Shown: positions 124 to 10,453, numbered from the stretch's first letter. The stretch: 60,027 nt of DNA from a virus (IMGVR_UViG_3300032315_000413:1-60027), one strand, 5' to 3'. Numbers and translations: made by a program. The notes: generated by a model from the letters alone, not told the origin.

Positions 124-2301
124 TTGGTACGTTTTCCGACTTGCTTCATCTAGATTGAGGTTTGCAATGTCGTCCTGAAGAACTTTTAATACGCGGTCGC
201 GTCCACCATATTTTGCGTAGGTTTTGTTGAGAGATGCGGCCAAATGTTCAGGTTCCATTGAATTATACGGCTGACCTCCAACAAAACGATCAGTGCCATT
301 AGTCAACATATCTCTGTAATTTCGCGCCACGCCTTCGTTCTCGGCAAAATACAGCCCATGCCCGTAGGCCTGCGCGCCCTCGCCCGTGCCGATCTTTGAC
401 ATATCGAAGCGGTCAAAATCATGCGGGCTGCCGTGGTACGCCTTGATGCGCCGCACCGCGTTGATCGCGTCTTTCATCGGCCCCGCTTCGGCCTCGTCGG
501 GTTGCATGGCGATGCCAGCCGCAGCCAGACCCAGCGCGGGGCGCGCGGCGCGCCGTGCGAGGTCGCGACCGCCCTTGAAGCCCAAGACGTTTGCGACGTC
601 CATGCCGACATCCATGTAGTCGGGCGCTTCGGCACCCTCGGCACCCGTGGCGACGTCGGCCATCTTGTAGAGCGACGACACCGGCAGCGCCATCTCGGTC
701 GTGTCGCGCACGTTGCGGCCAACCGTGGCAAGCGGGTCGGTCATGAGGCCAATGGCCTGATCGCGGTAGTGCTGCCCGATGCCGCGTGCCGCCATGCCGG
801 GGAGGTCGCGTGCGATCTCGCCCATGGTGCGCGCGGCGTCGCCCATCGAGTAGGACGGCATCGCGCGGTTCATGTCGCGGATGCGCGTCTGCTCCACAAG
901 ATCCGGCATGCGCCCGCGCCCCGCCAGAGCGCGCCGACGCTGCCGCTCGGCCTCCATCTCGTAGTCCACGCTGCCGCCGTCGTCGTAGCCCGCGAGGCCA
1001 CCGGAGGCCATGCCGCCGACACGTTCGCGAAACCATTTCATTAGCGGCTCAATTTCGCTGCCTTCGTAACTGAGGCTGTCCACCGTGGCTTGTTTTTTTG
1101 GATCGGTTATTTCAAACCTTGGCAAATCACGATCGGGCGTGCGTGCGGTGAGGCGACGGTGGCCCTCAAGAGCGCGCAAAAGCTGTTGCTCGTCCGGCAT
1201 CACGGTCATTTCAAACCCAACACCTGTATCCATTGGCATAAATCGCGCTGACCGTGCGCGCGTCATAAAATCGTACATGGCATCTGTTCCGCCAGCATCA
1301 ATGCCGGGAATATCTTGTATTTCACGATGGTCGGTGTATCGCTTGCCGCCCATGTAATCTCGCATGCCGCGATTAGGCACATGGAAATCGCCAATGCGTT
1401 GATAGTCTCCGGTATCTGCCTTGCCGCTCAAATCAAGCATTTGCCCTTTTGGCATGATGTACCCAGCCTCTGCTGGGTTTCGTGTAAGACCAAATTTTTC
1501 AATGGCTGATTTTACAAGCGCCTCGTCAGCCATCGGCAATTCAGTAGCCTTTACTGCGGGCTTTGGTGTAGCCCTCGCAATGGCCTTCATGCCGCGTTTT
1601 AAAATGCCACCATCGCCGAAATGCGGAACGCCCCCATCCGCAAACTTGCTCTCGTCCACTGCCTCGTTGAGGGCGGGCAATGCGAGCGCGCCTGCGCCGA
1701 TGCCTGCCAGCAGATCACTGCTGTCGCGCTTGGCAGGGTCGAACTGTGCAAAGCGGGAGCGGATGTTTTTGGGATCAAAAGATACAATCGTTTTCTCATC
1801 AGGAAAGTATGAATCAAAGCCAGCCGCTTTCATTTTGGCCGCACCCTGATCGCTACCGCCAATAATAAACGCTAATTTTTCGCCTAAAATTTTACCGTCT
1901 TTGACGTACCATTTCTCGACCCAATCGGCAGACGGACCAGCCGCAGATCGAAGTTCTGGCGTCCAATCATATTGCTGATTGGCGCGAACGCTGTTGCCGG
2001 GATTGATCCTAAGCGGCATGACATTGCCGCCCATTTGTTCTGCATACCCAGACGCAACGCTTGGATCGGTTGACGCATAAAAACCGTTGCCGTTTATTGG
2101 CGACTTGCCAGAAGCTGATCCGACCTTATCCATCGAAACGGCATCATAGTCAGACGCCCTGCCATGGTATGCCTCGACCGGGAACATCTCCTTGCCGCGC
2201 GCCACACGCGCAGCCTCGGCGGCGTCGGGCGCAGCCTTCGGCGCACGCTTGGCACCCGTCTTGAGCAACGCCTCAATGGCTTCAATGAGCGACTTACCCA
2301 T
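1..2301 (-). CDS. Polyvalent putative virion protein with two ART-PolyVal-like ADP-ribosyltransferase domains, 5' part (continues 59904->59464; 913 aa total)
   Basis: Hand translation: ATG at 2301 overlaps the terL stop, with no in-frame stop found down to base 1. Motifs AYHGRASDYDAV...GNGFYASTDPSVASGYA...GFDS...VSFDPKNIRSRFAQFDP and AYHGSPHDFDRFDMSKIGTGEGAQAYGHGLYFAENEGVARNY. Confidence 0.85.
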   Translation of the reverse strand, partial: MGKSLIEAIEALLKTGAKRAPKAAPDAAEAARVARGKEMFPVEAYHGRASDYDAVSMDKVGSASGKSPINGNGFYASTDPSVASGYAEQMGGNVMPLRINPGNSVRANQQYDWTPELRSAAGPSADWVEKWYVKDGKILGEKLAFIIGGSDQGAAKMKAAGFDSYFPDEKTIVSFDPKNIRSRFAQFDPAKRDSSDLLAGIGAGALALPALNEAVDESKFADGGVPHFGDGGILKRGMKAIARATPKPAVKATELPMADEALVKSAIEKFGLTRNPAEAGYIMPKGQMLDLSGKADTGDYQRIGDFHVPNRGMRDYMGGKRYTDHREIQDIPGIDAGGTDAMYDFMTRARSARFMPMDTGVGFEMTVMPDEQQLLRALEGHRRLTARTPDRDLPRFEITDPKKQATVDSLSYEGSEIEPLMKWFRERVGGMASGGLAGYDDGGSVDYEMEAERQRRRALAGRGRMPDLVEQTRIRDMNRAMPSYSMGDAARTMGEIARDLPGMAARGIGQHYRDQAIGLMTDPLATVGRNVRDTTEMALPVSSLYKMADVATGAEGAEAPDYMDVGMDVANVLGFKGGRDLARRAARPALGLAAAGIAMQPDEAEAGPMKDAINAVRRIKAYHGSPHDFDRFDMSKIGTGEGAQAYGHGLYFAENEGVARNYRDMLTNGTDRFVGGQPYNSMEPEHLAASLNKTYAKYGGRDRVLKVLQDDIANLNLDEASRKTYQRTLDLVKSGSPLANFTTVPKTGRMYEVNINADPARFLDWDN

Positions 2302-3781
2302 AGACCGGCCCTCCGGCGTAGCGCAGGCGGCGCTTGGTTTCGGGCAGCTCATCGACGAACCGCTCGACGGGCTTGGTGGAGCGCAACAGGTTCATGTCGG
2401 ACAGCACGCGCAGCGCCTGCGTGGCGGTGTCCATCAGGTCATCGTGCTTGACGTTGGGGAACGCGCAAAGCTGCGAGACGAGATCCTCGCACCACGAGCG
2501 TAGCTGGCCGGGGCGCTTGTCGCTCTCAGGCATCCACACTTGGCCCTGTTTGAAAAAGGGCGACGCAAGGTGCAAGCGCGCCAGCTTGTCGGCCTTGCCG
2601 GGGTTATAGGCGTAGGCAGGCACGCCAGCCTGTGCGAGATACTGCCGCAGCGACTTGCCAGCACCGATGTCCTCGATCACGATCGTATCCACGCGCCGAC
2701 CGCCAAGCTCGGGGAGCTGCGAGCCGATCAGGGGTGCGATCATCGGCTTGTCAACTTCGCCGTAGCGGAACTGCATCTCTTCCTTGACCTTGGAGACGAG
2801 ATCGGGCAGGCCCAAGCGGTCTTGCCACGCATCGAGAAGGATCACCTCCAATCGTTTGGTTTCGGGATTATTCCAAACGCCCCAGCATGAGCAGCCGGTG
2901 TAGTCGGGGTCGTTGGTCTTGTTGTCGAGCGTGCGCTCGGTGAACGCCGTGTCGAGCGAGAGCAGCACATGCTCGAACTTGGGCAACGCCTTCGATGCAG
3001 GCCACATCTTGATCCACGATCGGCGGATGATGCCGGACTCTTCGGGATCGATCAGCTCACCGTCCAGCTCTTGGCGACCCAGACGGGTTCCCTCAAGCGA
3101 CTTGATCTGATCGAAGAACGAGGGCGCAAGATTGGCGCGATTATCGTAAGTGGTGCCGCGTGTAATTACAACGTCTGCACGCTTGGTGAGATTGCGAACC
3201 AGCTCGACCGGCTTCGGCGTCGTCGTGAACATCGCACGCGGATGCTGGCCGAGGCGCAGGCCGAGCATCGCCATGTCGAACGTCTCGACGCCGTACTGCC
3301 ACGCCGCGATCTCGTCGCCCCAAATGCGATGCGCCTGCGGGCCGCGCAGACGATCAGGCTCGGTGGCGCTGAAGCCCTTGATCAGCGATGCCTTGCCGTT
3401 GCGCGACTTTATCCTGATCTCAGATAGCGACGAGTTATAGTCCAGAAGAATCTCGTGCGGGATGCACGCAAGCAATCCGCTCTCACCCTCGATGCATACG
3501 CCGCGCAAATCACCATGAGTAGGAGCAATGACATGCGTGCGCGTTTCAGGATTGCTGTAAGCATACCACCACGTCTCCTCAGCGCCCGGTCTCGTTTTCC
3601 CGAAGCCGCGACCCGCTTGCATGAGCCAGATATTGTAATTGCCGAGCGGCTCGCGCTGCGCCGGTCGAGACTTCTCAAGCCAAGCCAAGCGCGCTGCGAT
3701 CGCCGCGAGATCCGGCACATCGTAATTCGCCAGCTCGCTGCGGATGGCGTCCGGCTCCAGCGTGGCGAGATCCTGAAGCAT
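2294..3781 (-). CDS. terL: Terminase large subunit (Terminase_6 type)
   Basis: Walker A AGRGFGKT, LRGPQ...IWGDE Walker B, TTTPKP coupling motif, nuclease-domain DTA and HDDLMD. Confidence 0.95.
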   Translation of the reverse strand: MLQDLATLEPDAIRSELANYDVPDLAAIAARLAWLEKSRPAQREPLGNYNIWLMQAGRGFGKTRPGAEETWWYAYSNPETRTHVIAPTHGDLRGVCIEGESGLLACIPHEILLDYNSSLSEIRIKSRNGKASLIKGFSATEPDRLRGPQAHRIWGDEIAAWQYGVETFDMAMLGLRLGQHPRAMFTTTPKPVELVRNLTKRADVVITRGTTYDNRANLAPSFFDQIKSLEGTRLGRQELDGELIDPEESGIIRRSWIKMWPASKALPKFEHVLLSLDTAFTERTLDNKTNDPDYTGCSCWGVWNNPETKRLEVILLDAWQDRLGLPDLVSKVKEEMQFRYGEVDKPMIAPLIGSQLPELGGRRVDTIVIEDIGAGKSLRQYLAQAGVPAYAYNPGKADKLARLHLASPFFKQGQVWMPESDKRPGQLRSWCEDLVSQLCAFPNVKHDDLMDTATQALRVLSDMNLLRSTKPVERFVDELPETKRRLRYAGGPVYG

Positions 3782-4128
3782 CAGTACTTCGCCTTGGCGA
3801 TGATACCGACGATCTTCTCAAGCAGTTCTTGTTTGATCTCGTGTTTGACGCTGACGTCAGCCGTGATCTGCGTCTGCGCGAGCTTCGGGTGGATGTAGGG
3901 CGCAACGCCCTTGGCGGCATCGATGCGAATCTCGATCTCGCGGTTTTCGTCGCGCATCACGCTGGTCAAGAACTCGATTGCGGTCATGCCGGATGCGGCC
4001 ATCTCGCGCTCGCGAGCCGCCGACGCGCGGTTCGGCTTGCCCTTTCGAGAGCCGCCGCGCCGCACTTTTACTGCACTTTGCGAAGCATTCGCAACGTCAT
4101 CCAAGGCGGCATCCCCTCTTCCGAGCAT
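3781..4128 (-). CDS. terS: Putative terminase small subunit (start uncertain)
   Basis: Directly upstream of terL with overlapping stop/start. GGSRKGKPN and RIDAAKGVAPYIHPKL motifs are typical of these small basic packaging proteins. Confidence 0.7.
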   Translation of the reverse strand: MLGRGDAALDDVANASQSAVKVRRGGSRKGKPNRASAAREREMAASGMTAIEFLTSVMRDENREIEIRIDAAKGVAPYIHPKLAQTQITADVSVKHEIKQELLEKIVGIIAKAKY

Positions 4129-4199
4129 GTCAAGCCTTTGTTGATGATTACGCTGTGGAAAAGCAAGCGCCGTGATGCGGTTTGTACGCATCATTTTGC

Positions 4200-4450
4200 G
4201 ATCAATAGCTAAGTCATTGAAATACTGAATAATACTAAATAATACAAGATAATGCATTAATAGTTCAAATCAAGAATGACCGCTAACCCATTGAAATTGT
4301 TGTCTTTTTTATATTAATTAATAATAATATGAATAATACTAAGAAAGAGAGAGGTAGAGGGAAACTCGAAAACACCCCCCACCGGGGAGGTCGAAATTAA
4401 TTAGTTTAAGGCTAGGTGTCTCTGGGCAAATAACTTTAGTATTATATCGT
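4200..4450. promoter_or_regulatory. AT-rich intergenic region with 10-bp direct repeats and IHF-like sites (candidate pac/origin and divergent promoter region)
   Basis: AATACTGAAT/AATACTAAAT/AATACAAGAT in tandem at 4221-4250. GCTAAGTCATTGAAAT (4208) and GCTAACCCATTGAAAT (4282) resemble the IHF consensus YAANNNNTTGATW. Sharp GC drop between divergent operons. Confidence 0.5.
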
Positions 4451-4632
4451 TCAGACCCGCGTTCGTTTTAAGCGGGGCAGCATTTGATTGCGATCATCGC
4501 CTAAAAAGTTCGGCCAAATATATTTGGGATCGTGAATTATCCCCCCGCCGTCAAAGTTCAATTGCGGCGCTTGACAGGGAAACAATATACATTGATATGG
4601 ATAATCCACACACAATATGAGGATCACAAACA

Positions 4633-4815
4633 ATGCCCCCGCGCCCTCACGACGACCCGTCGCTACTGATCAATTTCAATATCCCCTACTCACTGCACTG
4701 CGATTTGATGCAGGAAGCTGACGCTGCCGGTGAGAACCGCAGCCGTTTTATCCGCGACGCGGTACAGCTTCGCATTCTGCTGATCCGCGAGGAACGGGCA
4801 AAAGGGCGCAAATGA
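4633..4815 (+). CDS. Ribbon-helix-helix (CopG-like) DNA-binding protein
   Basis: 60 aa: beta strand LINFNIP then helices ending NRSRFIRDAVQ. A TTGACA lies upstream at about 4571. Confidence 0.6.
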   Translation: MPPRPHDDPSLLINFNIPYSLHCDLMQEADAAGENRSRFIRDAVQLRILLIREERAKGRK

Positions 4816-4896
4816 CCGACATCACCGTCACCCTAACCGGCCCCGCCGAGCGCGCGGTTGTTTACGAGGTCACTCTTACTTTGGAGGGCAAAGCCA

Positions 4897-5397
4897 GTGC
4901 CTAATCACCGTAAGGCCGTCGAGACGCTTCAAAAAATGTGTGATCAAACCGGCATCATAATTGTCGGGCGACCCGTCGAAACGCTCGCCCTGCACCGGGC
5001 GCTCGTCGGTGTGTTTAATGCCGCCGTCGAGCGCAACGAAGCGAACGCCATGCTGCTTGCCGCCAAAAACAATCGGCAGATTGCCCTTTGCGATCCAAAC
5101 GCCGACCTCGCGTCGTACGATGAGGCACAAAGAAACGCAATAAATCACGCATCTAATTGCAGCAGAAAGATCACCAAGAAAATGGTGTCGCTGACCAATC
5201 TCGTGCGTTCGATGCCCAAACCCTGCACCACCGTGGAGATCAATTATGACCGAGATCACTTTGACCTTGAGCGGCCCCGCCGAGCGCGCGGTCGCCTACG
5301 CGGTTGGCATCGGCCTGCCCCCCGAACGGCTGATCGAGACGGCGATTCTCAATTGGATACGCCAGAACAATCTCAGCCACGTTCTGCTGGCCCCTGA
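4897..5397 (+). CDS. Hypothetical protein
   Basis: GTG start after a GGAGG RBS. The 3' end overlaps the next gene. Confidence 0.45.
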   Translation: MPNHRKAVETLQKMCDQTGIIIVGRPVETLALHRALVGVFNAAVERNEANAMLLAAKNNRQIALCDPNADLASYDEAQRNAINHASNCSRKITKKMVSLTNLVRSMPKPCTTVEINYDRDHFDLERPRRARGRLRGWHRPAPRTADRDGDSQLDTPEQSQPRSAGP

Positions 5398-5791
5398 GAG
5401 GCCGGAGAAGCCTGCCCCTCGCCCTGTGGGCCGACCGCCCAAGACGCTCGCCACGGACGCGCCCAGCCCGGTTGCGGGCCGCATTGAGGCCCTGCACCGC
5501 GACGAGGCAGGCAAGCAGATCGAGTTTGAGATATCGATCGCGGGCGACAGGGCGCGTATTCGCGTGGCAGTGCCGTGGGAGCCTGCCATCGACGCCCGCG
5601 TGCAGCTTGTGGCCCTGATGCCAATCGCTGGCATGGCATCGTGGAAAGACCTCGTCGGCAGGCTGGTGAGGCTGCTGGGCGGCGCGCTCCTGCCCCGTCC
5701 GCAGGCCGAGATCGACGCCGACATCGCGTGGCTCGAACAGCAGGATCTTGACGCGGCGGATCGCGCCGCATTGGCAAGTGTGAAAGGATAA
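5246..5791 (+). CDS. Hypothetical protein with AT-hook-like motif, immediately upstream of the GGC-NN arrays
   Basis: 181-aa ORF with phage-like codon usage and an RPVGRPPK motif. It stops 3 nt before array 1. Confidence 0.65.
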   Translation: MTEITLTLSGPAERAVAYAVGIGLPPERLIETAILNWIRQNNLSHVLLAPERPEKPAPRPVGRPPKTLATDAPSPVAGRIEALHRDEAGKQIEFEISIAGDRARIRVAVPWEPAIDARVQLVALMPIAGMASWKDLVGRLVRLLGGALLPRPQAEIDADIAWLEQQDLDAADRAALASVKG

Positions 5792-5794
5792 ATT

Positions 5795-5903
5795 GGCAGG
5801 GCAAAGCGTGGCCTAGCTGGGCATTGCGCGGCACAGCACGGCAAGGCAAGGCAAGGCAAGGAACTATTTGGTTTGGTCAAACGGTGTCTGTGACGCCGTT
5901 TGA
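5795..5903 (+). ncRNA. GGC-NN pentamer array 1 plus 3' hairpin (putative guide-like RNA)
   Basis: GGCAG GGCAA AGCGT GGCCT AGCTG GGCAT TGCGC GGCAC AGCAC GGCAA GGCAA GGCAA GGCAA (5795-5859), then a 12-bp stem TCAAACGGTGTC-TGT-GACGCCGTTTGA (5877-5903). Confidence 0.75.
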
Positions 5904-5917
5904 GCAAGCCAATGTCA

Positions 5918-5992
5918 GGCTCGGCTCGGCAGGGGCATGCGCGGCAGGGCGCCGCGATGCGCGGCTTGGCCCGGCGAGGCAAGGCAAAGCAT
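5918..5992 (+). ncRNA. GGC-NN pentamer array 2 (putative guide-like RNA)
   Basis: GGCTC GGCTC GGCAG GGGCA TGCGC GGCAG GGCGC CGCGA TGCGC GGCTT GGCCC GGCGA GGCAA GGCAA AGCAT: 15 units in unbroken 5-nt phase. Confidence 0.75.
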
Positions 5993-6060
5993 TCATCTGG
6001 CGGTCGGTTCCGCGTCAGGTGACGGTGAGGCAGGGACCACAAAAAGAGCGAGGCAAAACA

Positions 6061-6666
6061 ATGTTCATCAATGTGAGAATCGAAGGCATCACACCGCTGA
6101 TCTGCAACAAGTTTTTTGACGAGGCGGCGTTTGCAGCGTCGGGCGGAACGCGCAACTCGAGTGCGGCGCAGGAGCGCGGCACGCCGCAAGAGCAGGCTGA
6201 AAAGAAACTTTATCTTAGCTTGCGGACGGGAAAGCCAATGATCCCGCAGCCAAACCTTTTGCGGTCGCTGATCGACGGCGGCACGTTCCACAAGGTCGGC
6301 AAATCGCAAGTGACGACGTCATCGAAGTCCATGCTGTTTTCGTGCTTGGACATCGATGCGGCTGAGATCCCTCTCGAATACAAGCAACCGTGGCGCGTCA
6401 ATACGCGGGCGGTCGTAATCCCGGCAACGAAGGGCCGGATTCTGGCGCACCGGCCCATGTTCGACGATTGGGCGCTCACGTTTACGCTGATGCTCGACGA
6501 TACGATCGTGGGCGTGAAGCTGCTGCGGCAGATCGTAGACGACGCTGGCAAGCGCGTCGGCTTGGGCGACTTTCGACCGGCCAAGAAGGGGCCATACGGC
6601 AAATACTCCGTCGTGCAGTGGGAAGTGCAGTCGGCGACGACGCATCTCCAGCAGGCGGCGGAATAA
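6061..6666 (+). CDS. Stand-alone RAMP/Cas7(Csm3)-like RNA-binding protein (Vipr-like), 201 aa
   Basis: N-terminal strand INVRIEGITPLI, PMIPQPNLLRSL (compare RAMP P.IPGSSLKG.L), RPMFDDWALTFTL strand, and C-terminal Gly-rich loop VGLGDFRPAKKGPYGKYSV. Confidence 0.8.
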   Translation: MFINVRIEGITPLICNKFFDEAAFAASGGTRNSSAAQERGTPQEQAEKKLYLSLRTGKPMIPQPNLLRSLIDGGTFHKVGKSQVTTSSKSMLFSCLDIDAAEIPLEYKQPWRVNTRAVVIPATKGRILAHRPMFDDWALTFTLMLDDTIVGVKLLRQIVDDAGKRVGLGDFRPAKKGPYGKYSVVQWEVQSATTHLQQAAE

Positions 6667-6669
6667 CTG

Positions 6670-6799
6670 GGCACGGCCTGGCGAGGCAAGGCTTGGCGCT
6701 GCTGCGCACGGCGGTGCGGCGCACGGCGCGGCTAGGCTTGGAGAAGCCCGGCGAGGCGAGGCTAGGCGGTACACGGCCATGCAAGGCAAGGCAAGGGAA
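6670..6799 (+). ncRNA. GGC-NN pentamer array 3 (26 units; putative guide-like RNA)
   Basis: GGCAC GGCCT GGCGA GGCAA GGCTT GGCGC TGCTG CGCAC GGCGG TGCGG CGCAC GGCGC GGCTA GGCTT GGAGA AGCCC GGCGA GGCGA GGCTA GGCGG TACAC GGCCA TGCAA GGCAA GGCAA GGGAA, starting 3 nt after the stop codon. Confidence 0.78.
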
Positions 6800-6801
6800 G
6801 G

Positions 6802-6823
6802 CGGGGGCGAAAGCCCCCGTTTT
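6802..6823 (+). terminator. Rho-independent terminator closing array 3
   Basis: CGGGGGC-GAAA-GCCCCCG followed by TTTT. Confidence 0.85.
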
Positions 6824-6864
6824 CATGCTATCAAACAAAGCAATAATATTACCCAAATAATCTG

Positions 6865-6894
6865 TTGACGCCGATTGCATAACCCTGATAGGGT
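6865..6894 (+). promoter_or_regulatory. Putative sigma70-type early promoter
   Basis: TTGACG-N18-TAGGGT with an A/T-rich upstream stretch. Near-identical architecture at 19687-19716. Confidence 0.6.
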
Positions 6895-6927
6895 CTTTTT
6901 GAGATTGAGATTCACCCACCAAGGAGA

Positions 6928-7110
6928 ATGAAAATGACGGTTCAGGAAATTCGCGCGGCGGTCAAACGCGGCAAGGCTCAAGCGGCGGCACGCCTTGATC
7001 GCGAGATGGGTGCTGGCACGTTTGCCAAAATCGCCGCGTATAGCGCAAGCGACAAGAGCCGCGCCGCATTGGCGCATTTGGCCGCGATCTGCAAAGCGGA
7101 GGGCCGCTAA
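6928..7110 (+). CDS. Hypothetical protein
   Basis: AAGGAG RBS; first gene after the promoter. Confidence 0.6.
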   Translation: MKMTVQEIRAAVKRGKAQAAARLDREMGAGTFAKIAAYSASDKSRAALAHLAAICKAEGR

Positions 7111-7111
7111 C

Positions 7112-7210
7112 ATGCTCCGCATTTTTGCTGAAGCAATTGGCTTCCTGCTGGGCCTCGCTGGCCTGCTGGCATTGGTGCTGCTGGCTTACGCCGCCCTGTA
7201 CCTGATCTGA
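7112..7210 (+). CDS. Small single-TM peptide (32 aa)
   Basis: MLRIFAEAIGFLLGLAGLLALVLLAYAALYLI, tightly packed in the operon. Confidence 0.5.
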   Translation: MLRIFAEAIGFLLGLAGLLALVLLAYAALYLI

Positions 7211-7220
7211 GGAGATCGAC

Positions 7221-7469
7221 ATGTTCTACCACGACATGCCCGTGAGCCTGCACATCGGACGCGGCGAGGACACGCACCAAGACATCGACGCGACCGCCGT
7301 CTACACCTATCGGCCAGCGATCCGCGCGACCTACGACGACCCCGGCGACGGCCCCGAGATCGAGCTGCTGAAGGTGATGGTCGGCTACACCGACCTGTTG
7401 CCCATCATCGACGTCGATATCCACGATGACATCGTGGTCTATATTCGCGAAAATCACGAGGAGGCGTAG
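7221..7469 (+). CDS. Hypothetical acidic protein
   Basis: GAGGAG RBS and strong GC3 codon bias. Confidence 0.7.
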   Translation: MFYHDMPVSLHIGRGEDTHQDIDATAVYTYRPAIRATYDDPGDGPEIELLKVMVGYTDLLPIIDVDIHDDIVVYIRENHEEA

Positions 7470-7646
7470 ATGAAAATCAAAACCGAATACGACCCGCGCG
7501 CCCTGCTGCCCTCATGGGAGTGGACCGCGTGGGACGAAAGCACCTACGACGGGGCCGACGACGCCGGTCCCAAGGCGCGCGCCATCGGGTGCGGCCCGAC
7601 CGAGGCGGAAGCGATCGCAGACCTCATGGAGCAGCTCGAATCGTGA
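7470..7646 (+). CDS. Hypothetical protein (58 aa, below ORF-track cutoff)
   Basis: GGAGG RBS. MKIKTEYDP...WEWTAWDESTYDG...IGCGPTEAEAIADLMEQLES; abuts both neighbours. Confidence 0.7.
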   Translation: MKIKTEYDPRALLPSWEWTAWDESTYDGADDAGPKARAIGCGPTEAEAIADLMEQLES

Positions 7647-7816
7647 TCAACAAGATGCGCCCCGGCGATGTGTTGGTCGTCGTACGCGTGCCGCACGGGG
7701 CCAAGCCGCCGCCGGGGTTCAAGCATCGCGACGGTGCCGTTGGCACGCATCACGGCAAGCACACGACGCACGCGGTGCGGCTGGTGCGGAAGCGGAAAAA
7801 GAAGGTGAAGAAGTGA
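7643..7816 (+). CDS. Small basic hypothetical protein
   Basis: GTGA overlaps with both neighbours. Confidence 0.5.
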   Translation: MINKMRPGDVLVVVRVPHGAKPPPGFKHRDGAVGTHHGKHTTHAVRLVRKRKKKVKK

Positions 7817-8100
7817 CCAGCCCCCTTACAGAGTTCGACCGCGCCATTGCTGACATCACCCAACGCCGGGGCGACGTCTACGGTCACCCTGCCGATCACT
7901 TTGCGCGCATCGCCCAGATCAAGGCGGGCGTGGCCGACTGCCAAAATCCGCTTATCCGGCACGCACTCGAGATGATCGCCGTGAAGATGGCGCGGCTGGT
8001 GACGTCGCCGGACCATATCGATAGCCTGATCGACATTGCGGGGTACGCCCGCTGTGCGGCGATGATTTTGGACAGACAAAAAAACTGCGAGGCAAAATGA
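7813..8100 (+). CDS. DUF6378-like phage protein
   Basis: RGDVYGHP..HFARIA...MIAVKMARL...HIDSLIDIAGYA signature. Confidence 0.8.
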   Translation: MTSPLTEFDRAIADITQRRGDVYGHPADHFARIAQIKAGVADCQNPLIRHALEMIAVKMARLVTSPDHIDSLIDIAGYARCAAMILDRQKNCEAK

Positions 8101-9587
8101 CAAAGATCAAAAAAGAACCAGCGAAGCCCACGCTTGACGTGGCCGCTGCCCCCCGTGCGGTGCAAGGTGCCAAGGGTGGCGTCGTGCGAATCGAACCGCA
8201 CGGGGGGACTTCCTATCAGGCGTTTTTGGCATCAAAGGCCGTGCGCGCTTCGATGCGTGGGCTAAAGCAAGTCCCCGAACTTGCGGCGCACCTGTTCAAC
8301 TATCAGGCGCATAGCGTCGCGCACGCTTTGCAGGCAGGCGGGGCGGGCTTGTTCCTCGATACTGGCTTAGGCAAGACCGAGTGCCAGCTTGAATTTCTGC
8401 GGCACGCTGGCGAGACAACAAACGGGCGCACGCTGCTTTTGACGCCGCTTGCCGTCGCCGGTCAAACGAAGCGCCGCGCCGAACGGTGGGGATACGAGGC
8501 CCGCGTCATTCGCGACCAAAGCGAAGCGGGCGAGGGCATCAATATCGTGAACTATGACCGGCTTGATAGGATTGACCCATCATGGTTTGGCGCCGTGTCG
8601 CTAGACGAAGCTTCGATCCTCAAAAGCTTTACCGGCAAGACGACGCGCGCACTTATCAATGCGTTTCGCGGGCATAGGTTCAAGCTTGCCGCAACCGCAA
8701 CGCCTGCGCCTAACGATCATATGGAACTCGGAAACTACGCCGAATTCCTAGAGATTATGCAGGCGAATGAAATGCTGTCCCGCTGGTTTATGAACGATAC
8801 CAGCACCGCAAGCCAAGAGTGGCGATTGAAGGGCCATGCGGAATCGGACTTTTGGGATTGGCTGGCATCGTGGGCGCGTTGTGCCGAACTGCCATCGGAT
8901 CTCGGGGGCGACGATACGGGCTTTATTTTGCCCGAGCTTGCAATCTTCCGGCATCGTTCGGCGGAAACGCATATAAAGGGCGGCGAAGGCCTGTTTGCCG
9001 ACGTAAGTATGTCGGCAACTAATATGCACGCGGTCAAACGGCAAACGAGCGCCGCGCGCGCGGATGCGATTGCGGGCGTCGTCGCGCGCGAGGCTGGCGA
9101 GGCTTGGCTTATCTGGTGCGATACAGACTACGAGGCCGACGCGCTAAAGGCGGCAATCCCGAGCGCGATCGAGGTGCGCGGCTCGCACACGACCGAGCAA
9201 AAGGAAGAACGGTTAGAAGCTTTTGCAACAAATCAATCAAAGCACTTGATCGCCAAGCCGCAAATGTGCGGGTTTGGTCTGGACTGGTCGCACTGTGCGC
9301 GCATGGCGTTTGTGGGGCGGTCTTATAGCTACGAAACCTTCTATCAGGCCGTGCGCCGTTGCCAGCGTTTTGGGCAGACGCGGCAGGTGCAAGTGCATAT
9401 CGCAGTCGCAGAAGGCGAAGCCGAGATCGGGCGCATCGTTGAACGCAAGACCGCCGATCACGCCAAGATGAAGATTGCAATGCGGGCCGCGATGGCCCGT
9501 GCAAAGGATGCGTCGCGTGTTGCGCGCGTCGAATACGAACCAAAACACAAAGGAAGGCTTCCAAAATGGCTCACATCCGTTGCTTGA
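8097..9587 (+). CDS. SNF2-like superfamily 2 helicase
   Basis: DTGLGKT, LDEAS, TATPAPND, GFGLDW and QAVRRCQRFGQ motifs. Confidence 0.9.
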   Translation: MTKIKKEPAKPTLDVAAAPRAVQGAKGGVVRIEPHGGTSYQAFLASKAVRASMRGLKQVPELAAHLFNYQAHSVAHALQAGGAGLFLDTGLGKTECQLEFLRHAGETTNGRTLLLTPLAVAGQTKRRAERWGYEARVIRDQSEAGEGINIVNYDRLDRIDPSWFGAVSLDEASILKSFTGKTTRALINAFRGHRFKLAATATPAPNDHMELGNYAEFLEIMQANEMLSRWFMNDTSTASQEWRLKGHAESDFWDWLASWARCAELPSDLGGDDTGFILPELAIFRHRSAETHIKGGEGLFADVSMSATNMHAVKRQTSAARADAIAGVVAREAGEAWLIWCDTDYEADALKAAIPSAIEVRGSHTTEQKEERLEAFATNQSKHLIAKPQMCGFGLDWSHCARMAFVGRSYSYETFYQAVRRCQRFGQTRQVQVHIAVAEGEAEIGRIVERKTADHAKMKIAMRAAMARAKDASRVARVEYEPKHKGRLPKWLTSVA

Positions 9588-10453
9588 ACGAATCGCATGG
9601 CAATAACTTTGCCGTCTATAACGGAGATTGCGTCGATATTGTTGGTCAATTGCCGGATGCGTCGATAGATTTTAGCGTCTACTCGCCGCCGTTTGGCTCG
9701 CTTTTCGTGTACTCGGAAAGTGCCGCCGACATGGGCAATTCGACGGACGAAGAATTTGCTAAACACTACGCGTGGCTTGTGCGCGAGAAATTCCGAGTTA
9801 CCAAGCCGGGACGATTGACCGCCGTGCATTGCAGCGACTTACCCATGACGAAATGGCGCGATGGTGCCGTTGGCATTAAAGATTTTTCGGGCGACATTAT
9901 CCGTATCCATCAAGATGCCGGATGGATCATGCACTCGCGTCGCACGATCTGGAAATGCCCCGTTGTCGAAATGACGCGCACGAAGCATGTCGGGTTACTT
10001 TACAAGCAACTTATGAAGGATAGCAGCAAGTCGCGCGGCGGTATGCCTGACTATCTGATTACATTTATCAAGTCTGGAGAGAACGCATCGCCCATCGTTC
10101 ACACGCCGGAGAATTTCCCGCTTGACCAATGGCAGGAATGGGCGTCGCCGGTATGGATGAGCATCAATCAATCGAACGTGCTTAACGTCAAGCTGGCACG
10201 CGAACAAAACGACGAGCGCCATCTTTGCCCGCTCCAATTGGACGTTATCGAACGCGCGCTGATTATGTGGAGTAACGCGGGCGATATTGTGCTTTCCCCG
10301 TTTACCGGCATCGGTAGCGAGGGCGTTATGTCGCTAAAGCTTGGCCGCAAGTTTATCGGCACCGAGCTGAAGGAAAGCTACTGGAAACAGGCGACGCGCT
10401 ACTTGCAAGCCCAAGACGCGCAAGACGATCTGTTTAAGCGTGAAATTGCGTAA
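9566..10453 (+). CDS. DNA N6-adenine/N4-cytosine methyltransferase (beta class)
   Basis: Catalytic SPPF motif, then HLCP and VLSPFTGIGS SAM-binding motif, FIGTEL. Confidence 0.9.
   Translation: MAHIRCLNESHGNNFAVYNGDCVDIVGQLPDASIDFSVYSPPFGSLFVYSESAADMGNSTDEEFAKHYAWLVREKFRVTKPGRLTAVHCSDLPMTKWRDGAVGIKDFSGDIIRIHQDAGWIMHSRRTIWKCPVVEMTRTKHVGLLYKQLMKDSSKSRGGMPDYLITFIKSGENASPIVHTPENFPLDQWQEWASPVWMSINQSNVLNVKLAREQNDERHLCPLQLDVIERALIMWSNAGDIVLSPFTGIGSEGVMSLKLGRKFIGTELKESYWKQATRYLQAQDAQDDLFKREIA

Follow-up and report, generated by a model that had tools for sequence, protein, structure and literature searches.

The 60,027-nt viral contig analysed here (IMGVR_UViG_3300032315_000413:1-60027; the window) carries, between positions 5795 and 6824, a gene for a small RAMP protein and three arrays of five-nucleotide GGCNN units on the same strand. 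We read this segment as a tailed-phage locus of the VIPR kind (Viral Interference Programmable Repeat), in which the gene is vipr and the arrays are vrRNA arrays, and we put the probability of this reading at about 0.88.

The preprint that describes these systems (10.64898/2026.04.26.720920) presents VIPR as mostly phage-encoded. A system comprises the minimal RAMP protein Vipr, as a rule a single accessory gene (vap), and the vrRNAs, which are about 100 nt long, co-purify with Vipr and contain 9-16 YNNGG repeats with a conserved GGY, a hypervariable NN and an invariable 3' 'tail'. The NN pairs direct the binding of double-stranded DNA, with one target base skipped per unit, and transcription is repressed; the natural targets are rival phages and satellites. 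Seven types (I-VII) are distinguished, the array layouts are staggered, hammerhead-interspersed or single, and SUSP1-clade tails adopt a fold with a hairpin and a pseudoknot. A second preprint (10.64898/2026.04.26.720927) assigns one repeat to each protomer, with G1 read by H17 and D177, G2 by R138 and W178 and Y3 held in a pocket with R179, and it describes the SUSP1 pseudoknot only as a 3' end cap; a third (10.64898/2026.10.15.759431) treats a shared tail as the part that renders the vrRNA 'competent for Vipr complex formation'.

Repeat arrays and the RAMP protein gene

The whole window was scanned for GC at 5-nt spacing, and just three places in the 60,027 bases had it in at least 8 of 10 steps. 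The observed maximum was 10 of 10 steps, and 100 first-order Markov simulations of the contig reached a maximum of 6 in 48 cases, 7 in 47 and 8 in 5; the arrays are far beyond chance. Tandem Repeats Finder picked up array fragments only. Over all 54 units, position 1 was G in 39, position 2 was G in 53 and position 3 was C in 51, while the last two positions held 15 different dinucleotides, which fits the published GGY/NN definition. The RNA side of that definition, at least four tandem YNNGG/GGYNN units beside the gene with GGY kept and NN variable, describes what was found. Exactly three bases lie between a TAA stop and the first GGC unit of arrays 1 and 3 (TAA 5789-5791, then GGCAG at 5795; TAA 6664-6666, then GGCAC at 6670), as an earlier preliminary description of this DNA had noted, and its reading of the array ends was also right: (GGCAA)4-GG at 5840-5861 for array 1, (GGCAA)2-AGCAT for array 2, and TGCAA plus two GGCAA before a GAAA-tetraloop hairpin for array 3.

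The product of the gene between arrays 2 and 3 (P0001) matched the PHROG family phrog_4652 (function unknown) with E 7e-18 and no Pfam or NCBIfam family. Among 981 candidate relatives from a word-indexed search, 801 had E ≤ 0.001, and the full scan of representative clusters gave 2394 at E ≤ 0.001, 648 at E ≤ 1e-10 and 68 at E ≤ 1e-30. The single sequence matched the 'SUSP1 Vipr protein' in the PDB (36pp_D) with E 1.6e-7 over residues 123-184, and a profile of 80 relatives matched the same chain over its full length (E 2.2e-19; profile 1-183, chain 1-188). Comparison by hhalign with the homologue of Escherichia phage tootiki (Felixounavirus) gave a probability of 99.3% and E 1.2e-20 over 170 columns, with 21% identity. 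In the hhalign alignment, the SUSP1 residues R138, D177, W178 and R179, which contact GGY (an Arg of the thumb, and the Asp, aromatic residue and Arg of the G-loop), aligned to R131, D170, F171 and R172 of P0001, and H17 was substituted by N16; R131 and R172 are nearly invariant within the P0001 family. The AlphaFold2 model built from the alignment had a pLDDT of 94.6 and a pTM of 0.88, and Foldseek found 88 PDB matches at E ≤ 0.001, at the top of which were Csm3/Cas7 backbone subunits of CRISPR type III and type VII (best match 6ifl_F, E 6.9e-7, TM about 0.5, probability 1.00). Because of the homology to SUSP1 Vipr and the Csm3/Cas7 fold matches, the term 'RAMP protein' in the preliminary description was correct, and its proposal of RNA guide cassettes of such a protein was supported, with a Vipr homologue of predicted Csm3/Cas7-type fold as the partner.

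Viral encoding is seen in the terminase large and small subunits, the helicase and the methylase on the same 60-kb contig. Since the window agrees with both the protein and the RNA definitions of VIPR, we assign the locus to these systems. The features are collected in Table 1.

Table 1 Features at the putative VIPR locus and just upstream of it, with positions in the window
Feature	Position	Strand	Remarks
Two overlapping sigma-70-like promoter matches	4300-4337	+	9/12 each, consensus match only; candidate operon start
181-amino-acid open reading frame	5246-5791	+	ends 3 nt before array 1; sole positional vap candidate, role unsupported
vrRNA array 1	5795-5861	+	13 GGCNN units (5795-5859), final four GGCAA (5840-5859), then GG
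Strong hairpin after array 1	5868-5912	+	core stem 5877-5888/5892-5903, loop UGU, no U run after it
vrRNA array 2	5918-5992	+	15 units, unit 4 degenerate; end GGCAA GGCAA AGCAT (5978-5992)
'Weaker stem' of the preliminary description after array 2	6006-6040	+	not above chance
vipr gene	6061-6666	+	201-amino-acid single-RRM RAMP protein P0001; homology to SUSP1 Vipr and fold
vrRNA array 3	6670-6799	+	26 in-phase units; end TGCAA GGCAA GGCAA GGGAA (6780-6799)
GAAA-tetraloop hairpin, then UUUU	6797-6824	+	probable intrinsic terminator; 5' arm overlaps the final array 3 units

Relatives of the protein occur in other phages. A tblastn search of 50,697 phage records found it in 152, with 31 covering at least 80% of its length, all below 60% identity, and the single-protein search of genome contigs found no relative. 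With the segment 4400-8100, blastn matched 13 phage records, all of them Mycobacterium phages and all through array 3 alone (6667-6806), and the matched sequences were arrays just upstream of the homologous gene. Arrays with a five-base period adjoin the gene in the Mycobacterium phages Saal and Donkeykong, in Listonella phage phiHSIC, which has an AT-rich genome and NNGCA units, and in Gordonia phage MakoManhole, the proteins being 25-31% identical, and they also adjoin it in IMG/VR relatives. The two Mycobacterium phage loci, assigned to Cheoctovirus in their records (L001 2985-3181 and L002 2899-3188), have four or five arrays, mostly of 12 units, which abut with a register shift and resemble the 'staggered arrays' of the figure S18 legend in 10.64898/2026.04.26.720920; the word 'Mycobacterium' does not occur in the main text of that preprint. 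In the IMG/VR contig L048, vipr is preceded by a row of at least 12 directly adjoining vrRNAs (1644-2445), with 8-15 units each and endings GGCAA-GGATTTTAG, and no hairpins between them, and the contig would be a convenient natural set for the study of guide boundaries.

Conserved 3' endings of the arrays

For the analysis of the array ends, the window was compared with 80 loci from IMG/VR in which Vipr shares 52-69% identity with P0001. An array was called where GC recurred at a 5-nt period over six or more good units, no two bad units were adjacent and 40% or more of the units carried GGC. Ends less than 60 nt from a locus edge were excluded, as were arrays short of GGC units, and identical ends were counted once; the sample then held 174 distinct array 3' ends from 56 sources (the window and 55 of the 80 relatives).

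This analysis showed that AA was the variable pair in 96/174 last units and 94/174 second last units, in 47/174 third last and 44/174 fourth last units, versus 197/1902 internal units (10%). The next two bases were GG in 117 of the 174 ends, and GG was followed by at least five A/T in seven bases in 81, so the consensus of the 3' ends reads GGCAA GGCAA GG ATTTT; the array 5' ends of the same sample had no motif. The ending of array 1 in the window (GGCAA, then GGAACTATTT) has close look-alikes in three of the fetched loci (L025, L047 and L062), and in the closest fetched relative (L092, 72% identity) the arrays end in the same A/T-rich way without hairpins. The GGCAA tail had been proposed to be a constant loading or nucleation handle; the conserved AA-coded ending supports a constant 3' handle, which may load, nucleate or cap the filament. 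The comparison supports the shared ending as a conserved feature of the clade, as would be predicted for a constant 3' handle. Measured against the published criterion of an 'invariable, structured 3' tail', the ending is conserved but short, and it is unstructured in most relatives; in the window, only array 1 is followed by a private hairpin, and array 3 by the terminator.

We tentatively propose, as a possibility somewhat short of an even chance, that the constant 3' handle of this clade is made from its own repeats, with between one and four GGCAA units before GG and a stretch rich in A/U, and that it replaces the SUSP1 pseudoknot cap; the AA units would mark the end of the filament, and the A/U stretch, which we take to resemble an RNase E-type site, would be cut by a host single-strand endonuclease. 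If this is true, vrRNAs would have a second way to be matured and capped, without need of a ribozyme or a structured tail, and it would make long, unstructured arrays of back-to-back guides possible, such as those of L048.

In the Felixounavirus Escherichia phage tootiki, the two vrRNAs inspected (L091 1975-2090 and 3255-3340) also carry GGTAA GGTAA, placed two or three units ahead of the tail. On the basis of these two RNAs, the occurrence of an AA-coded pair close to the 3' end may extend beyond the clade of the window.

Downstream hairpins and alternative readings of the arrays

The hairpin after array 1 folds with -30.8 kcal/mol and a z of -8.14, and 0 of 200 shuffles were as good. The 12-bp stem that had been described there (5877-5903) is right and extends to the whole of 5868-5912; it belongs to no Rfam family, and no counterpart of it was seen in the fetched loci. 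The stem claimed after array 2 fared differently, as the fold of 5994-6060 (-19.2 kcal/mol) had a z of -0.74, with 42 of 200 shuffles at least as good, which is the chance level for its composition, and a z of -0.2 in a second test. The hairpin after array 3 (-24 kcal/mol, z -4.62, 0/200 shuffles) is the probable intrinsic terminator of the operon. The consensus terminator scan did not list it, and we think that the short U run, being counted into the extended stem, explains this miss.

It had also been claimed that the 3' end of each guide is set by a downstream hairpin, and in this reading the hairpins are conserved processing signals of the cassette. A significant hairpin does follow two of the three arrays of the window, hairpin and pseudoknot are contained in the tails of the SUSP1 clade, the published tail being present in the Felixounavirus locus L091 as well, and in L071, a relative at a greater distance (53% identity), every array is followed by a copy of a conserved hairpin. 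However, when the 50 nt downstream of the 174 ends were folded along with 221 random 50-nt pieces from the same loci, z ≤ -2 was found for 15/174 ends versus 17/221 controls, z ≤ -3 for 6/174 versus 4/221, and a minimum free energy ≤ -15 kcal/mol for 50/174 versus 54/221. Among the seven ends outside the window listed at z ≤ -2.5, five had strong hairpins and no other array within the following 50 nt (one each in L012, L027 and L032, two in L044), and the remaining two lay inside a following array. G+C-rich hairpins stand right after the last array in L012 (-29.5 kcal/mol, z -5.3), L016 and L018. Against conserved hairpin signals there are also the tandem guides of L048 and the array endings of L092, all without hairpins, and the chance-level stem after array 2 in the window. 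The hairpins that would define guide 3' ends were thus not conserved, and we regard this reading as unlikely. Because downstream folds are no commoner than in controls here, yet are present in L071 and Felixounavirus, the structured tails are, as far as the sequences indicate, clade-specific and not part of the cassette of the window's clade. The hairpin after array 1 could serve guide 1 as a 3' structure, in the manner of a structured tail, or could be unrelated to the guide.

Two further readings do without guide RNA, and both have a much smaller chance than the hairpin signals. The pentamer arrays might act as DNA to which a phage protein binds, as iterons or as sites of packaging or replication. 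Their distance of about 1.5 kb to the terminase genes and their position ahead of the helicase would suit such a role, as would a 10-bp sub-period visible in the arrays. But the motif is strand-asymmetric (GGC, not GCC) and lies on the strand of the RAMP gene in the window, in four annotated phage records and in the loci inspected, the partner protein has a predicted RNA-binding RAMP fold, and the homologous SUSP1 arrays are made as RNAs of about 100 nt that co-purify with Vipr (10.64898/2026.04.26.720920); we consider a DNA role highly improbable. Least credible of all, and close to negligible, is that the arrays are coding sequence, as annotated in GenBank for Donkeykong gene 48 and phiHSIC ORF21. 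The G+C-rich DNA of the window has long open reading frames (ORFs) over the arrays and two records annotate such ORFs, but a 5-nt period misfits codon periodicity, the two free positions vary while GGC is kept, the annotated ORF of phiHSIC is on the opposite strand, and the Saal array that matches the window has no annotated feature.

The annotated genes over arrays are found at L002 2847-3233 (Donkeykong gene 48), at L003 3605-3886 (phiHSIC ORF21, opposite strand) and at L001 3193-3939 (Saal gene 51), and the annotated vipr gene of Saal begins at the array end, about 200 nt ahead of the start of homology. The comparison therefore shows ORFs annotated over vrRNA arrays in public phage records, and these are probably annotation artefacts.

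We return to the assignment of 5795-6824 as a VIPR locus, against which several points weigh. The transcription, processing and RNA ends of this segment are what we infer. The 26 units of array 3 exceed the 9-16 units of the published clades, so array 3 is possibly more than one guide; 55 of the 174 called arrays also had more than 16 units, with a caller that is able to merge adjacent guides. As it can merge or split adjacent guides and ends that abut the next array were kept, the counts of tails and hairpins are approximate. The three tails of the window differ from one another outside the GGCAA units, and no accessory vap gene was identified beside vipr, in comparisons that covered 87 related loci for the ORF ahead of array 1 and 69 distinct loci for recurrent neighbours. 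A locus without vap may still be a VIPR member, because 10.64898/2026.04.26.720920 says 'typically' and gives six vap genes for seven types. Target searches count on the same side. Under the rule of one skipped nucleotide per unit, the best guide scores obtained when the window was searched together with every fetched locus (502,084 bases) were not above those of shuffled guides, the best being 18/26, 21/30, 18/26, 19/26 and 29/52. Exact patterns of 9 or 10 units had 0, 3, 0 and 0 matches in viral contigs and 0 in genome contigs, by a method that misses imperfect targets. The absence of self-targeting is reported in 10.64898/2026.04.26.720920, and the result for the window agrees with it.

Nine consecutive units of array 2 match exactly in three related AT-rich viral contigs (L088 5528-5553, L089 1463-1488 and L090 822-847), at a site within a homologous ORF of 256 amino acids. 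We rejected this site as a chance match, with a full guide score of 22/30, below the 80% threshold of the preprint, and with mismatches in the flanking units. The real ORF is also on the opposite strand, with the skipped base at codon position 1 and not at the wobble position.

Genomic context, mechanism and comparison with known systems

Past the hairpin after array 3 there is a further promoter-like match (6820-6847), and none was found on the + strand between 4337 and 6820. All three arrays are on the strand of the gene, the sole promoter-like site ahead of its end lies upstream, and the terminator hairpin follows at 6797-6824. From the sequence it is therefore plausible that a single polycistronic transcript runs from the upstream ORFs through guides 1 and 2 and vipr to guide 3.

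The 181-amino-acid ORF ahead of array 1 matched no Pfam, PHROG or NCBIfam family, had Atlas scores below 0.8 and had no homologue in the 87 related loci. When ORFs within 1.5 kb of vipr were clustered over 69 distinct loci, no same-strand neighbour occurred in more than 14 loci; the recurrent neighbours were a long helicase-type protein and other proteins. The largest cluster (58 loci) contained minus-strand ORFs only and was taken as an artefact. Rfam found no family in 4000-9000 at E ≤ 1 and none in seven related loci at E ≤ 0.1, including no hammerhead, and ARAGORN found no tRNA in the window.

Downstream of the locus, the + strand of 7813-10453 has genes for a DUF6378 protein (E 1.2e-13), for a phrog_62 helicase (E 3e-55) and for an N6/N4 DNA methylase (E 8.9e-17), and the small and large terminase subunits lie divergent at 2294-4257. 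Between the vrRNA arrays of two relatives we saw tRNA-like elements, each with an acceptor-type stem and a T arm whose loop reads GGTTCGANTCC; MakoManhole has three of them (L004 1650-1692, 2985-3027 and 3102-3145) and L007 has one (2775-2835). ARAGORN and Rfam did not call these elements in either locus. They could be processing signals for RNase P/Z; the main text of 10.64898/2026.04.26.720920 mentions hammerhead-interspersed arrays and has 0 occurrences of tRNA.

If the SUSP1 and P. fulva work can be carried over, each Vipr protomer would take one pentamer and a helical filament would be built, in which the GGY bases would be sequestered and the two variable bases of each unit exposed. The exposed bases would pair with double-stranded DNA, every third target base being skipped, and the binding would silence transcription of a competing mobile element. 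The arrays and the vipr gene would form one early operon that ends at the hairpin 6797-6824, and the GGCAA run with GG and A/U-rich sequence would be the constant vrRNA 3' end of the clade in place of the SUSP1 pseudoknot tail. The hairpin after array 1 would then be a local 3' structure of that single guide and the hairpin after array 3 the terminator, while the supposed stem after array 2 would be no feature.

VIPR was described only in 2026, and experiments have been done mainly in two type II clades. The present locus and its 80 relatives represent a clade whose vrRNAs end differently at the 3' side and in a far simpler way, and in which an accessory gene could not be recognised. Guide excision and capping are not addressed in the main text of 10.64898/2026.04.26.720920, where the words 'RNase' and 'polycistron' are absent; a conserved ending defined by sequence is a direct handle on both and would aid the automatic calling of vrRNA boundaries. 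From sequence alone, the preliminary description had the main points of the architecture right, with a repeat RNA that is associated with a RAMP protein and keeps its 3' end constant. The analysis added that the constant end consists, in this large clade, of AA-coded units, GG and an A/U-rich stretch, that the hairpins are not conserved, that there is no apparent vap and that in-phase arrays can have more than 16 units.

In its predicted fold the protein is like the backbone subunits of class 1 CRISPR systems (Csm3/Cas7, types III and VII), which are known to polymerise along a guide RNA. Unlike these systems, the locus has no second RRM, and its period is 5 nt with a sequence-specific GGC versus 6 nt on an arbitrary spacer. 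No CRISPR repeat-spacer array was found, the tandem-repeat scan giving only the 5-nt arrays and short-period tracts, and the twelve ORFs compared with Pfam between 2294 and 10453 matched no cas family. Within VIPR, the protein is only about 21% identical to that of the Felixounavirus/SUSP1 type, and the tail of the window is made of AA-coded units, GG and an A/U-rich stretch, unlike the hairpin and pseudoknot of roughly 40 nt in the SUSP1 clade. Y is C throughout in the window and T in the Felixounavirus locus, and the lack of an identified vap and the single array of 26 units are further differences from published VIPR systems. Staggered and ribozyme-interspersed arrays appear in figure legends S18 and S19 of 10.64898/2026.04.26.720920, and abutting, register-shifted guides are found in relatives (Mycobacterium phages and L012); unlike staggered or ribozyme-interspersed arrays, those of the window are separated by unique sequence and the gene, and Rfam found no hammerhead. 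With VIPR systems the window shares a compact phage-encoded locus, a small single-RRM RAMP protein homologous to SUSP1 Vipr, GGY/NN pentamer arrays on the strand of the gene and on both sides of it, and a putative constant 3' end. The VIPR class itself is already known from the 2026 preprints, and the present locus is a further example of it.

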